Assembly (NCBI RefSeq): GCF_056746865.1 | Contig: NZ_CM163382.1 | Reading direction: 5' to 3' (one strand) | DNA length: 64,000 nucleotides | In this document: one piece after another, positions 34,090 through 37,383 of the stretch | Layout: each line of letters opens with the position of its first letter | Numbering within the stretch: the first letter of the stretch is position 1 | Translations under genes and position numbers: made by a program | Notes under the pieces: generated by a model | Told to the model about the DNA's origin: nothing | What the model saw: only the letters and a program-made list of their open reading frames with translations | Database searches by the model: none

Positions 34090-34466
34090 CGACCACCAAT
34101 AGTCCGGGTATTGCTAATGGCAAATTCATATGGGATCGGTTCTTCAAGCCCTTCAAAACCACTACCTATAGCAAAAACCTCATTTTCCATTGTAACGCCC
34201 ACGTACTGACTGAATGGAATACTGGTTGTAGCCGAAAATATCTTGTCCATTCCTTCATAACCGCTGTATCCCCATTGCTCTCCTAATGGTTCATCAAAAA
34301 AAAAGGAAACAAAATTTTTTCTTGCCAGATGTTCTTCCATTACAGGGTCTATATCATCTCGCTTTTCTCGTGTAGTTATATAAATATAACCAGTGTCTCT
34401 TACTGCAACACCATTAATATAAAACCCTTTGAATATTTCATTGTACTCATCTTGAGTAATAATCAT
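34090..34466 (-). pseudogene. N-terminal part of the IS2-split repeat-family gene
   Basis: Starts MIITQDEYNEIFKGFY..., similar to the paralog N-termini (MIISQERWDKTFKNF..., MIIDIESYQKYLKGFY...); the frame runs into IS2. Confidence 0.7.
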
Positions 34467-34497
34467 GTTTTTAATCTCATATTATTTTCATTTGTTT

Positions 34498-34812
34498 TTA
34501 CTGGAGTAAGAGTATGGACGGGATTGTTTTCCACCCATGCCCTTTCTGGAATCCCGGTGTCGCCGGAACATTCCCTTCACTGGTAGAGAAATACGAGCGA
34601 TCTTTCTGTGCCACCATCGACTTACAGATAAATACGGTAGCTGTTCCGTTCTGCAAATCCCGGGCATACGCCGTGTTGGAATAAGGCACAACGACCGGGC
34701 CTGTGGGCGGAGGAGGAGGGGACCAGCAGGGATCGGGAAATGCGCCAGCAGATTTCCCGTCAGACGCTCTGGAGCAGGCTTCCCGCCCGTTGATATAAAC
34801 GTTAGTTTCCAT
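34498..34812 (-). pseudogene. Truncated PAAR-like (DUF4150-type) N-terminal fragment of a secreted-effector gene
   Basis: METNVYINGREACSRASDGKSAGAFPDPCWSPPPPPTGPVVVPYSNTAYARDLQNGTATVFICKSMVAQKDRSYFSTSEGN... follows the DUF4150 pattern (FPDxC..PPP..PvPYpN...S.GdE) as I recall it; the ORF stops after 104 aa with no toxin domain. Confidence 0.5.
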
Positions 34813-34865
34813 AATGTGCTATCCGTGTACCCACTTTCCTTTAAATTAACTGCTGGCCCGGGAGG

Positions 34866-35906
34866 CTATTCAAACGCCATTGAATCAAAGAGGACATTCC
34901 AGGCATTACCATCATAAATAGCAGCTCCTCTGGAGCCACAAACCATCATCACTGTCCCATCGGGGGAAACATCAATTCTTTTACTTAAAACGGCCACTTC
35001 AGGAGGGACGGGTTTATGTTTTGCATGCATGGCGAGCACCAGTTTGTCATCTTCCAGTACCCAGATGCCATAATCACTGGCACACCAGAGACGTCCATCA
35101 AACCATCCCATGTCGAGGAAAGGCATGGTCATTCCACCATGCGTAATTTGTGTCCATTGCTCATTGCGACCCTTCCATATAGCACCGTCAAAATCAGCAA
35201 TATAAACAAATCCGTCACCGGCACAGCAAACTGTGTACAGAAGTTTATTTGTCGGAAAAGGGAGTTTTTTCCATTGCTCACCATTAAAGTGATAAACGGT
35301 TCCCGTTCCACCCACTGCATACATATCTGACTCGGAAAAACCAGATAAATCCTGAAATAAGCTTCTGGACATCGACTCAGCCTTCCGTTCCAGGAATCCA
35401 TCGGGAACAGGAATAGTTTGTGAAGCATCCAGCCAAACCTGATGATTAATTCGTTTATATATTCTTAACCCTCCCCCAATTGCATAGACACTTGTTCCTA
35501 CTCTGACTACCTTAATTATAGCTGTTCTCATGTCTGAGGATTTAGAAATAGGAATATCCAGATTATTTTCTCGTCCCTTGTATTCTCTGGTTTTGTAGCT
35601 TATGACTTCACAGTCGATATCAACTATAACTAATTCAGTTTGGGAAGGTGACCATCCAGCCGATATCGTTGGATAGCTCAAATTACCGAAAGACATCCCA
35701 AACACCCTGTTTTCAGGAGGGTTGTCAATAACTATTGATACCAGCTTGTGTTTAGGCATGTAATAGTCGTTGCCATATTCGATATGATTTTCATCAATTT
35801 TTTCAATTAATAATAAGCCAACGCGGCCATGTTCAAAGCCATATGTACAATCATATACTTCAAAATTTTTAAAGGTTTTATCCCAACGTTCTTGACTAAT
35901 AATCAT
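34866..35906 (-). CDS. Repeat (beta-propeller-like) family protein, paralog B (346 aa); candidate immunity protein
   Basis: Five to six blade-like repeats (VYAIGGGLRIY, MYAVGGTGTVYHFNGEQW, CCAGDGFVYIADFDGAIWKG, WCASDYGIWVL, MVCGSRGAAIYDGNAW); C-terminal half identical to paralog A. Confidence 0.6.
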   Translation of the reverse strand: MIISQERWDKTFKNFEVYDCTYGFEHGRVGLLLIEKIDENHIEYGNDYYMPKHKLVSIVIDNPPENRVFGMSFGNLSYPTISAGWSPSQTELVIVDIDCEVISYKTREYKGRENNLDIPISKSSDMRTAIIKVVRVGTSVYAIGGGLRIYKRINHQVWLDASQTIPVPDGFLERKAESMSRSLFQDLSGFSESDMYAVGGTGTVYHFNGEQWKKLPFPTNKLLYTVCCAGDGFVYIADFDGAIWKGRNEQWTQITHGGMTMPFLDMGWFDGRLWCASDYGIWVLEDDKLVLAMHAKHKPVPPEVAVLSKRIDVSPDGTVMMVCGSRGAAIYDGNAWNVLFDSMAFE

Positions 35907-36017
35907 TTCATTTCCTTAGTTATCACAATTATCATCATAGCTATCTATAAACGTTAGTTTCCATAATATGCTATCCGTGTGCCCACTTTCCTTTAAATTA
36001 ACTGCTGGCCCGGGAGG

Positions 36018-37058
36018 CTATTCAAACGCCATTGAATCAAAGAGGACATTCCAGGCATTACCATCATAAATAGCAGCTCCTCTGGAACCACAAACCATCA
36101 TCACGGTCCCATCGGGTGAAACATCAATTCTTTTACTTAAAACGGCCACTTCAGGAGGGACGGGTTTATGTTTTGCATGCATGGCAAGCACCAGTTTGTC
36201 ATCTTCCAGCACCCAGATGCCATAATCACTGGCACACCAGAGACGTCCATCAAACCATCCCATGTCGAGGAATGGCATGGTCATTCCACCATGCGTAATT
36301 TGTGTCCATTGTTCATTGCGACCCTTCCATATAGCACCGTCAAAATCAGCAATATAAACAAATCCGTCACCGGCACAGCAAACTGTGTACAGAAGTTTAT
36401 TTGTCGGAAAAGGGAGTTGTTTCCATTGCTCACCATTAAAGTGATAAACCGTTCCCGTTCCGCCCACTGCATACATATCCGATTCGGAAAAACCAGATAA
36501 ATCTCGGAATCGACTTCTGGTTATTGCTTCTACCTTCCTATCTAACAATCCATCGGGGACAGGCAGGTATGTAGAATGTTCCCGCCAAATTTGGTGATCA
36601 ACACGTTTGTATATTCTGAAACCACTACCGATAGCGTAAACACTGTTTTCAATTCGTACTACTTTTATTATAACGGAAAACATATCGATAGAACCTGGTA
36701 TGAGTATATTTATACTTTCTTCTACTCCTTTGTATACATCTTCTTTATAACTCATAACATCACGGTCCTGACTGACCATAACATATTCGGTCTGAGATGG
36801 GGGCCAACCAGAAGATATAGTCATCAGAGATATCCCTGTTGCGCGACGACCATATATGCGATATTTTTTGGAGAGGGTAAACGTAATGGAAATTAATCTC
36901 TTTTCAGGTGGGTAAAAAGGGTTTTCATATTCGGCATGCTCCTCATCTACCACTTCAATCAATGAAAGACCTACTTTTCCATGCTCGTAACCATAGGTGC
37001 AGTCATATATATAAAAGCCTTTGAGATATTTCTGATACGATTCTATATCTATGATCAT
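36018..37058 (-). CDS. Repeat (beta-propeller-like) family protein, paralog A (346 aa); candidate immunity protein
   Basis: Same architecture as paralog B; N-terminal half divergent, C-terminal half near-identical at the nucleotide level. Confidence 0.6.
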   Translation of the reverse strand: MIIDIESYQKYLKGFYIYDCTYGYEHGKVGLSLIEVVDEEHAEYENPFYPPEKRLISITFTLSKKYRIYGRRATGISLMTISSGWPPSQTEYVMVSQDRDVMSYKEDVYKGVEESINILIPGSIDMFSVIIKVVRIENSVYAIGSGFRIYKRVDHQIWREHSTYLPVPDGLLDRKVEAITRSRFRDLSGFSESDMYAVGGTGTVYHFNGEQWKQLPFPTNKLLYTVCCAGDGFVYIADFDGAIWKGRNEQWTQITHGGMTMPFLDMGWFDGRLWCASDYGIWVLEDDKLVLAMHAKHKPVPPEVAVLSKRIDVSPDGTVMMVCGSRGAAIYDGNAWNVLFDSMAFE

Positions 37059-37083
37059 TTATCACCTCAAATATCTTCATCGT

Positions 37084-37383
37084 TTATAACACCCCCATCA
37101 CCTGCATTGATTTTTGCAGAGTTAAATCACCACAGGTATAAGCGTCTTGGTAAGCTTTATCCAGTTGCGCTTTCAAACAAGATTTATCACAACCGTACAT
37201 TAATGCAACCTCATCAATTACCATACATCTGGCATCTTTATAACTCATTTCTTTTCCAAAATGCTTTTCTTCTATTAGAGTGCCTGTAGCTGAGTGTAAT
37301 GCACCATGTGAACCAGTACGATTGTCTTTTCCTTCCAGACAAATTGTAGGCGCTTTGCCTTCGGTATATTCCCCCCCCAGCAC
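37084..37383 (-). CDS. Small hypothetical protein (99 aa), possible orphan toxin-domain cassette
   Basis: ORF 25 nt upstream of paralog A; begins with GTG inside a G8 homopolymer; no motif recognised. Confidence 0.3.
   Translation of the reverse strand: MLGGEYTEGKAPTICLEGKDNRTGSHGALHSATGTLIEEKHFGKEMSYKDARCMVIDEVALMYGCDKSCLKAQLDKAYQDAYTCGDLTLQKSMQVMGVL

Follow-up and report, generated by a model that had tools for sequence, protein, structure and literature searches.

A probable orphan array of beta-propeller immunity genes, flanked by remnants of PAAR-like–Tox-GHH2 effectors, in an Escherichia coli low-GC island

Introduction

What is the function of a set of paralogous repeat proteins that stand in tandem, interleaved with the beginnings of a gene of a different kind? 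The question is raised by positions 34,090 to 37,383 of a 64,000-nucleotide stretch of DNA (NCBI RefSeq assembly GCF_056746865.1, contig NZ_CM163382.1), here called the window when the entire stretch is meant, which belongs to an E. coli chromosome. Two intact genes, A (36018..37058) and B (34866..35906), each encode a protein of 346 amino acids (aa), and a third copy, C, is split by the insertion sequence (IS) IS2. Interleaved with these propeller paralogs are a truncated PAAR-like open reading frame (ORF) and a six-codon copy of its start. An initial annotation, made from the sequence alone, proposed either an array of immunity genes for a lost PAAR-domain effector or an uncharacterised effector-associated module.

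The first of these proposals is borne out by the PAAR-like match, by the linkage of relatives to GHH2 toxin domains and by intact effectors in Escherichia whittamii and Citrobacter freundii, where partner proteins are 72–85% identical to A, B and C; the second is not needed. On the combined basis of anatomy, homology, synteny, fold and selection signature, we consider it likely that the three paralogs are Tse7/Tsi7-type immunity proteins left orphaned, whose toxins have been deleted and whose present role would be defensive against GHH2 DNase effectors. The immunity protein would be a cytoplasmic seven-bladed beta-propeller. Ancestrally it would have served against a PAAR-like (DUF4150) type VI secretion system (T6SS) effector encoded immediately upstream, binding that effector's C-terminal Tox-GHH2 (HNH/EndoVII-fold) DNase domain and neutralising it. 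At present it may shield the cell against GHH2 DNase effectors delivered by T6SS-armed neighbours (such as Citrobacter, Kluyvera or E. whittamii).

Results

Effector remnants between the paralogs

The array lies inside a ~12-kb low-GC island (31–45% GC vs ~52–57% in the flanks) bounded by nfrB (23291-25528) and cusS (37752-39212), with the array and all relevant genes on the minus strand. Three effector genes can be recognised in the window, all of them as fragments without the GHH motif, next to intact A and B.

The 3' remnant of effector 1, a PAAR-like–Tox-GHH2 gene and the putative cognate toxin of A, occupies 37111..37450. The initial annotation had noted a small ORF upstream of A; the ORF exists (99 aa, 37084-37383), and its nature is now apparent as the C-terminal Tox-GHH2 part of a toxin (PF15635, E 3.7e-6, model positions 31–120 of 122). 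A tblastn search with the full-length Citrobacter effector places the beginning of the remnant near 37440-37450 and aligns it, with a frame change, to aa 204–314 of the 328 in the C-terminal ORF of C. freundii E3. The frame change coincides with a run of eight G residues (37371-37378), the upstream frame reading ...MPRSKYPTRKCWGG and the downstream frame EYTEGKAPTICLEG... The remnant is 75% identical to aa 424–511 of E. whittamii E_a, vs 58.5% to E_b. Since it spans only residues 204–314, the invariant GHH motif located at ~175 of the 328-aa ORF is gone, and the catalytic CCPGQTGHH sequence is missing accordingly. Members of this superfamily require the [A/G]HH motif both to act as nucleases and to be toxic (PMC10902643, citing Pissaridou 2018). 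The start codon of A follows 25 nt after the GHH2 remnant and is preceded by a GGTGA Shine-Dalgarno sequence.

Effector 2 (35916..35964) has been reduced further. The initial annotation had seen that the METNVY start recurs downstream of A, and we find it as ATG GAA ACT AAC GTT TAT at 35947-35964, running directly into AGA TAG (R, stop). These six codons are joined out of frame to the last ~10 codons of the gene, DSYDDNCDN-stop, encoded by the 30 nt before B, and this tail matches the DSCDDNCDN-stop C-terminus of E. whittamii E_b. Effector 3 (34488..34812) contains the 104-aa ORF 34498-34812, correctly read as PAAR-like by the initial annotation: it matches Pfam Tox-PAAR-like/DUF4150 (PF13665) with E 7.2e-11, over only model positions 4–63 of 108. 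Over its first 91 aa, the PAAR-like part, it shows 100% identity with both E. whittamii effectors. Fused to this part in a different frame are the last 17 codons of the gene, GMGGKQSRPYSYSSKNK-stop (54 nt, 34488-34541), which match the C-terminus of C. freundii E1, GMGGKQSRPFPHDPVIASK-stop.

Paralog C consists of an N-terminal part (34087..34466) and a C-terminal part (32120..32756) separated by the 1,330-bp IS2 (32757..34086), which carries two IS3-family transposase ORFs. The IS2 flanks are 100% identical, with a 5–6 bp overlap, to an uninterrupted 336-aa gene (WP_000587531.1) of strain MS20675 (locus L001). The earlier description of two intact genes and a split third copy is confirmed. Beyond C lies a thiolase-like (PA0098-type) 3' fragment (31716..32027; NCBIfam PRK06147, E 2e-8 for the L001 allele), 83–86% identical to the fragments preceding C. 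freundii E2 and E4. It is the sole remnant of a vgrG island in the window; VgrG, DUF2169 and HEAT genes were not found in the island. A 17-aa relic of a fourth immunity paralog, QIAFPTNMFLYSVCCQG, was detected at 31615..31665 with the family hidden Markov model (HMM; iE 2.8e-4). Within its translation, the 15 residues QIAFPTNMFLYSVCC agree exactly with the immunity protein encoded at E. whittamii locus L053, and the Kluyvera immunity copy (L055) has QVAFPTNMYLYTICC. The relic abuts, and is cut off by, an ISAs1 copy.

Intact arrays and reconstruction of the ancestral locus

The organisation from which these fragments derive is preserved elsewhere. E. whittamii Sa2BVA5 (L014) has a collinear and intact array of E_a (528 aa), I1, E_b (532 aa) and I2, in which I1 corresponds to A (82% identity) and I2 to B (85%). 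C. freundii (L003) has four tandem units, each made of a thiolase-like 3' fragment, a PAAR-like–GHH2 effector and a homolog of the propeller gene, followed by a HEAT gene; its I3 is 72% identical to A and its I1 80% identical to C. E. whittamii I1 and I2 and C. freundii I1 each follow an intact effector. The effector type lost from the window is thus present in full in both species as a PAAR-like–helical linker–Tox-GHH2 protein of ~530 aa, and in intact islands a thiolase-like gene precedes each effector gene.

The effector remnants and tails, together with the thiolase-like fragment and the fourth immunity relic, indicate that the E. coli locus descends from an effector–immunity array of at least four units. 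The ancestral unit would have comprised a thiolase-like 3' fragment, a PAAR-like–linker–GHH2 effector gene and an immunity gene, repeated at least four times in tandem. By this reconstruction, the deletion in effector 1 would have taken all of the gene before codon ~400 and any sequence further upstream, that in effector 2 codons 7 to ~520, and that in effector 3 codons ~92 to ~510, the fourth unit being removed by an ISAs1-associated event. Three separate deletions would each have fallen inside an effector gene and spared the adjacent immunity ORF and its ribosome-binding site.

Two peculiarities of the intact effectors were observed. Two of the four C. freundii effectors (L003 6427-7991 and 9983-11583) are annotated in two pieces, the PAAR-like ORF (198 aa) overlapping the GHH2 ORF (328 or 340 aa) by 19 nt at the same position in both; this could reflect a shared frameshift mutation, a deliberate split or a programmed frameshift. 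E. whittamii E_b (L014 6136-7719) carries CCPGQTLHH at the place of the otherwise near-invariant CCPGQTGHH.

Fold and modular sequence of the propeller proteins

An AlphaFold2 (AF2) model of the 346-aa protein, computed from a 49-sequence alignment, has a mean predicted local distance difference test (pLDDT) score of 93.7 and a predicted template modelling (pTM) score of 0.92, and is an all-beta structure of 28 strands forming seven four-stranded blades. The propeller-like arrangement suspected in the initial annotation is therefore recovered as a closed propeller, with seven blades where five to six had been counted. Foldseek returns generic seven-bladed propellers (Gbeta, RACK1, Ycf48) and tectonin (E ~1e-8, TM score 0.55–0.6), and the best matches in AFDB50 are uncharacterised proteobacterial proteins of ~320–360 aa (TM score 0.85–0.99), including the UMN026 allele of C and a fragment encoded by E. 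coli strain 042.

No curated family covers the 346-aa protein: the best Pfam hit is Tectonin at E 0.34, and NCBIfam and PADLOC give none. Searches of the PDB by protein sequence and by profile returned no informative family for the propeller, the family profile matching designed 'Cake' propellers. An HMM search of 1.84 billion cluster representatives recovered 921 clusters at E<=1e-30; the family is large but unnamed. The Prokaryotic Genome Annotation Pipeline (PGAP) labels these proteins only as WD40/YVTN/BNR-like.

Several observations concern the wider family. Proteins of 2,000–6,700 aa (P0133, P0160, P0177, P0212, P0225 and P0252) are matched 23–44 times each by the blade 4–5 region of the profile, which points to a conserved blade motif shared with very large repeat proteins. 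Four members from Chitiniphilus and Ralstonia (P0032, P0033, P0039, P0040) have a ~100-aa C-terminal extension, labelled ankyrin by one source, and a metagenomic homolog (P0074) is fused to a SUKH (SMI1_KNR4, PF09346) immunity domain. The SUKH fusion suggests that composite immunity proteins exist.

A and B are 74% identical to each other, and each is ~30% identical to C. The N-terminal motif MIIxQExYxKxFKGF is common to the three paralogs and corresponds to the conserved N-terminus already noticed in the initial annotation. The similarity between A and B is a mosaic. A direct repeat of ~560 bp with ~98% identity (35946-~36505 vs 34794-~35353) takes in the last ~162 codons of each gene and the spacer and reaches 19 nt into the gene that follows; upstream of it nucleotide identity between the two genes is only ~55–60%. 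The same division is visible across the family: for 112 members, mean pairwise identity is 24% over the N-terminal 182 residues (blades 1–3 and a linker helix) vs 45% over blades 4–7. In both E. coli and E. whittamii, adjacent paralogs are almost identical in the C-terminal half, and the N-terminal half differs in step with the toxins. An AF2 model of the E. whittamii GHH2 domain fused through a linker to I1 (pTM 0.86) has both domains predicted confidently and only the linker disordered, and is compatible with a defined toxin–immunity complex.

The variable N-terminal half (blades 1–3) thus probably sets toxin specificity, and the conserved 3' half, with the conserved PAAR-like 5' end, probably provides homology arms for cassette exchange and deletion. 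A broader proposal combines these points and adds present function. The immunity gene would be modular, with a blade 1–3 specificity module co-varying with GHH2, and with the 3' half, spacer and PAAR-like 5' end acting as arms by which a cassette of toxin C-terminus and immunity N-terminal half is swapped or deleted; the toxin-less array would moreover be expressed and cross-protective in the gut against the T6SS DNases of Citrobacter, Kluyvera and E. whittamii, in E. coli lineages including ST69, 042 and UMN026. We put this combined proposal forward tentatively, as less likely than not. If true, the array would be an enterobacterial counterpart of acquired interbacterial defence.

Genomic context of the relatives

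To place the array among its relatives, one genome per species was scanned, giving 76 loci with 123 copies of the propeller gene, and these loci were searched with HMMs built from the effectors. At 50 of the 76 loci (53 of the 123 copies) the propeller gene is preceded on its own strand by a GHH2 domain whose end lies at most 200 bp away, a PAAR-like domain is present at 43 loci, and two or more tandem homolog copies occur at 26. The initial annotation had tied its proposal to linkage of homologs with toxin or secretion genes, and such linkage is what most loci display, including several VgrG/DUF2169 islands.

In all five toxin-bearing contexts inspected gene by gene, the homolog directly follows the GHH2 toxin domain. 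The Ralstonia solanacearum locus encodes VgrG, DUF6484, DUF2169, a 311-aa protein, a 538-aa PAAR-like–Tox-GHH2 protein, the homolog and a HEAT-repeat protein, and the Azoarcus locus repeats this gene order from VgrG through HEAT. In Cellvibrio, whose locus starts just ahead of DUF2169, the same order is seen from that gene on, and two additional pairs of a GHH2 fragment and a homolog come after it. A Pseudomonas species has a 489-aa GHH2 protein and then the homolog. Full-length effectors with both PAAR-like and GHH2 domains were found in E. whittamii, C. freundii, Ralstonia and Cellvibrio.

No GHH2 is present at 25 of the 76 loci. These relatives include toxin-less arrays of three to five copies in Massilia, Pseudoduganella, Roseateles, Acidovorax and metagenome-assembled genomes of Rubrivivax and Chromatiales (toxin-less tandem arrays outside Escherichia include loci L018, L033, L040, L052 and L081). 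Orphan copies surrounded by housekeeping genes were also seen in Salmonella, Paraburkholderia and Massilia. The linkage to GHH2 at 50 of 76 loci, the tandem and toxin-less arrays and the SUKH fusion together form the pattern expected of an immunity family.

We also considered a reading of the locus as an Rhs C-terminal cassette. This was rejected: the full-length relatives are PAAR-like and not Rhs proteins, with a PAAR-like–helical linker–GHH2 architecture in which no YD-repeat Pfam match was recorded.

Distribution and selection

Of 5,426 complete E. coli genomes, 152 (~3%) have the same degenerate array with >=99% identity, among them ST69, strain 042 and UMN026-type strains. No full-length copy of the effector was detected by blastn in complete E. 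coli genomes, ~13 of which have an unrelated DUF4150 gene sharing only its 5' 389 nt with the effector. The cognate toxins are thus, as far as visible, weapons of other species.

Codons 185–346 of A and B, which lie in the homogenised half, differ at 13 positions, 11 synonymous and 2 non-synonymous, which argues for purifying selection since the two halves were homogenised. Between species, the ratio of non-synonymous to synonymous substitution rates (dN/dS) is ~0.08 when A is compared with C. freundii I3 and ~0.06 when C is compared with I1; dS is saturated in these comparisons. On these sequence comparisons A and B look selectively maintained.

An independent insertion was seen in E. coli SCU-105 (L002 10932-13308), where an IS3-family element interrupts A and not C. 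Different IS elements have thus struck different paralogs independently, A in SCU-105 and C in the window.

Other features of the island

The island contains a second, unrelated orphan cassette (29404-30355, minus strand) between two ISAs1 copies. It begins with a 66-aa C-terminal fragment having a PCxxC-like motif and a weak match to a YwqJ-like deaminase (E 0.01, positions 68–134 of 138), followed 3 nt later by a SUKH-3 immunity gene (29691-30152) and then by an Rhs YD-repeat fragment (29404-29673), which belongs to this deaminase/SUKH-3 cassette and is separate from the propeller array. The two ISAs1 (H-repeat) transposase copies, at 28189-29325 and 30340-31476, are 2,151 bp apart and ~97% identical; the first is intact (378 aa), and the second, which abuts the fourth immunity relic, is broken into 156 and 218 aa by an internal stop.

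The lowest GC content (31–34%) is found at 25600-28200. Small minus-strand ORFs occupy 26466-26894 (142 aa), 26922-27368 (148 aa) and 27699-27941 (80 aa), and a 178-aa ORF at 25865-26401 has a multi-pass membrane-like sequence. Pfam gave no match for the 142- and 148-aa ORFs, and PADLOC none for those two and the 178-aa ORF. The small ORFs of this stretch may be further orphan immunity genes.

Discussion

Weighing the immunity interpretation

A number of points weigh against an orphan immunity array that is still in use. A sigma-70 scan found no convincing promoter upstream of the array (fewer sites than in shuffled controls), and a cusS terminator-like hairpin precedes it. IS elements knock out single copies in some strains (C here, A in SCU-105), and selection may accordingly be weak; with the 152 carriers >=99% identical, conservation within E. 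coli may be mostly clonal. P. aeruginosa is not named among the matches in the protein searches, in the one-per-species genome scan or in the top 50 of AFDB50. Binding, neutralisation, current expression and protection are properties we infer for this exact sequence family, as we do the toxin–immunity interface and the specificity role of the N-terminal blades.

One alternative is that the locus is a decaying relic of a horizontally acquired vgrG effector island, intact A and B reflecting recent acquisition and clonal spread with no current function. The destruction of all three effector genes, the IS2 and ISAs1 copies that riddle the island, the disruption of C here and of A by the IS3-family element in SCU-105, the near-identity of all 152 of 152 carriers and the failure of the sigma-70 scan to identify a promoter are what such decay would produce. 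Three independent deletions, however, each hit the toxin gene while sparing the adjacent immunity ORF and ribosome-binding site, the 11:2 ratio in the half shared by A and B and the low interspecies dN/dS indicate purifying selection, and toxin-less arrays of the family recur in unrelated genera. We therefore regard simple decay as unlikely, although it is the strongest of the competing explanations.

A second explanation would deny the propellers an immunity function and have them assist the effector instead, as chaperone, loading adaptor or carbohydrate-binding module. The fold does resemble lectin-like tectonins and BNR or glycosidase-type propellers, the PGAP labels go no further than WD40/YVTN/BNR-like, and a S. 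fredii study notes a weaker glycoside hydrolase resemblance of its Tsi7-like protein (PMC11872809). Set against this, the gene follows the toxin domain at once, overlapping it or parted from it by a short spacer, which is the canonical position of an immunity gene, and unlike an adaptor its copies persist and multiply without effector or T6SS genes nearby. The adaptor roles in these islands are already held by DUF2169 and DUF6484 (PMC11883445), Cellvibrio has orphan pairs of toxin C-terminal fragment and propeller, and one family member (P0074) is fused to a SUKH immunity domain. An accessory function is thus very improbable. An anti-phage or other stress-defence module unrelated to the T6SS, as might be imagined for a low-GC, mobile-element-rich island adjoining a prophage-prone region, can be rejected, given that PADLOC matches none and that the family is tightly linked to T6SS effector genes.

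The orphan immunity interpretation involves no new mechanism: the effector type, the position of the immunity gene and the concept of orphan immunity are all established. It does assign a probable role to a widespread family without a Pfam or NCBIfam model. It further implies that immunity genes directed at a T6SS DNase not encoded by E. coli itself would be present in ~3% of complete E. coli genomes, extraintestinal pathogenic lineages among them. Provided that they are functional, these genes would form a small piece of colonisation resistance and could help to predict which strains survive T6SS-armed Citrobacter or relatives. The locus is also an unusually clear record of stepwise toxin loss with immunity kept.

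Comparison with known systems

The closest parallel is the P. aeruginosa vgrG1b island (PA0095-PA0101), which encodes VgrG1b, an OB-fold protein, DUF2169, a thiolase-like protein, Tse7, Tsi7 and a HEAT protein (PMC11872809; PMC11883445; PMC9846239; PMC10281587). Tse7 is a 315-aa PAAR-like and Tox-GHH2 DNase (PMC9846239), and Tsi7 aligns over ~340 residues and resembles a glycosidase-type fold (PMC11872809). As in the Tse7–Tsi7 pair (PA0099–PA0100), the effectors considered here have an N-terminal DUF4150 and a C-terminal Tox-GHH2 domain with the immunity gene immediately downstream, the islands of relatives in Ralstonia, Azoarcus and Cellvibrio share the P. aeruginosa island order, and Tsi7 by description matches the size and propeller fold found here. 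The enterobacterial effectors differ in having ~526–538 aa with a ~200-aa helical linker vs the 315 aa of Tse7, and the E. coli locus in having no VgrG, adaptor or intact effector. The assignment to the Tse7/Tsi7 type is made by synteny, size and fold class, Tsi7 itself being compared by its published description.

Orphan immunity genes are described in V. cholerae T6SS auxiliary clusters and in Rhs and CdiA orphan modules, where arrays are described as growing by repeated recombination at conserved 5' regions (PMC6730261, citing Kirchberger 2017; PMC3150448; PMC3967940). The E. coli array resembles these modules in keeping immunity without a functional cognate toxin and in the high similarity of its genes to the immunities of true pairs elsewhere. 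It differs in lying outside any T6SS or vgrG cluster, adjoining cusS; in that its toxins appear to have been lost by internal deletions and not merely displaced; and in that part of the recombination arm appears inside the 3' half of the immunity gene.

Salmonella bongori TseV/TsiV is similar in that enterobacterial DUF4150 'evolved PAAR' nuclease effectors are associated with DUF2169 adaptors and occur as multiple paralogous pairs (PMC9635880). The two systems are unlike in the toxin, VRR-Nuc vs GHH2, and in the immunity protein, DUF3396 vs a beta-propeller.

The acquired interbacterial defence islands of Bacteroidales, attributed to Ross et al. 2019, are said to be toxin-less immunity clusters on mobile DNA that protect against the T6SS effectors of other species, and are reportedly large and integrase-driven, with many immunity families mixed. 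Unlike these, the E. coli array is a small, single-family remnant of an effector array.

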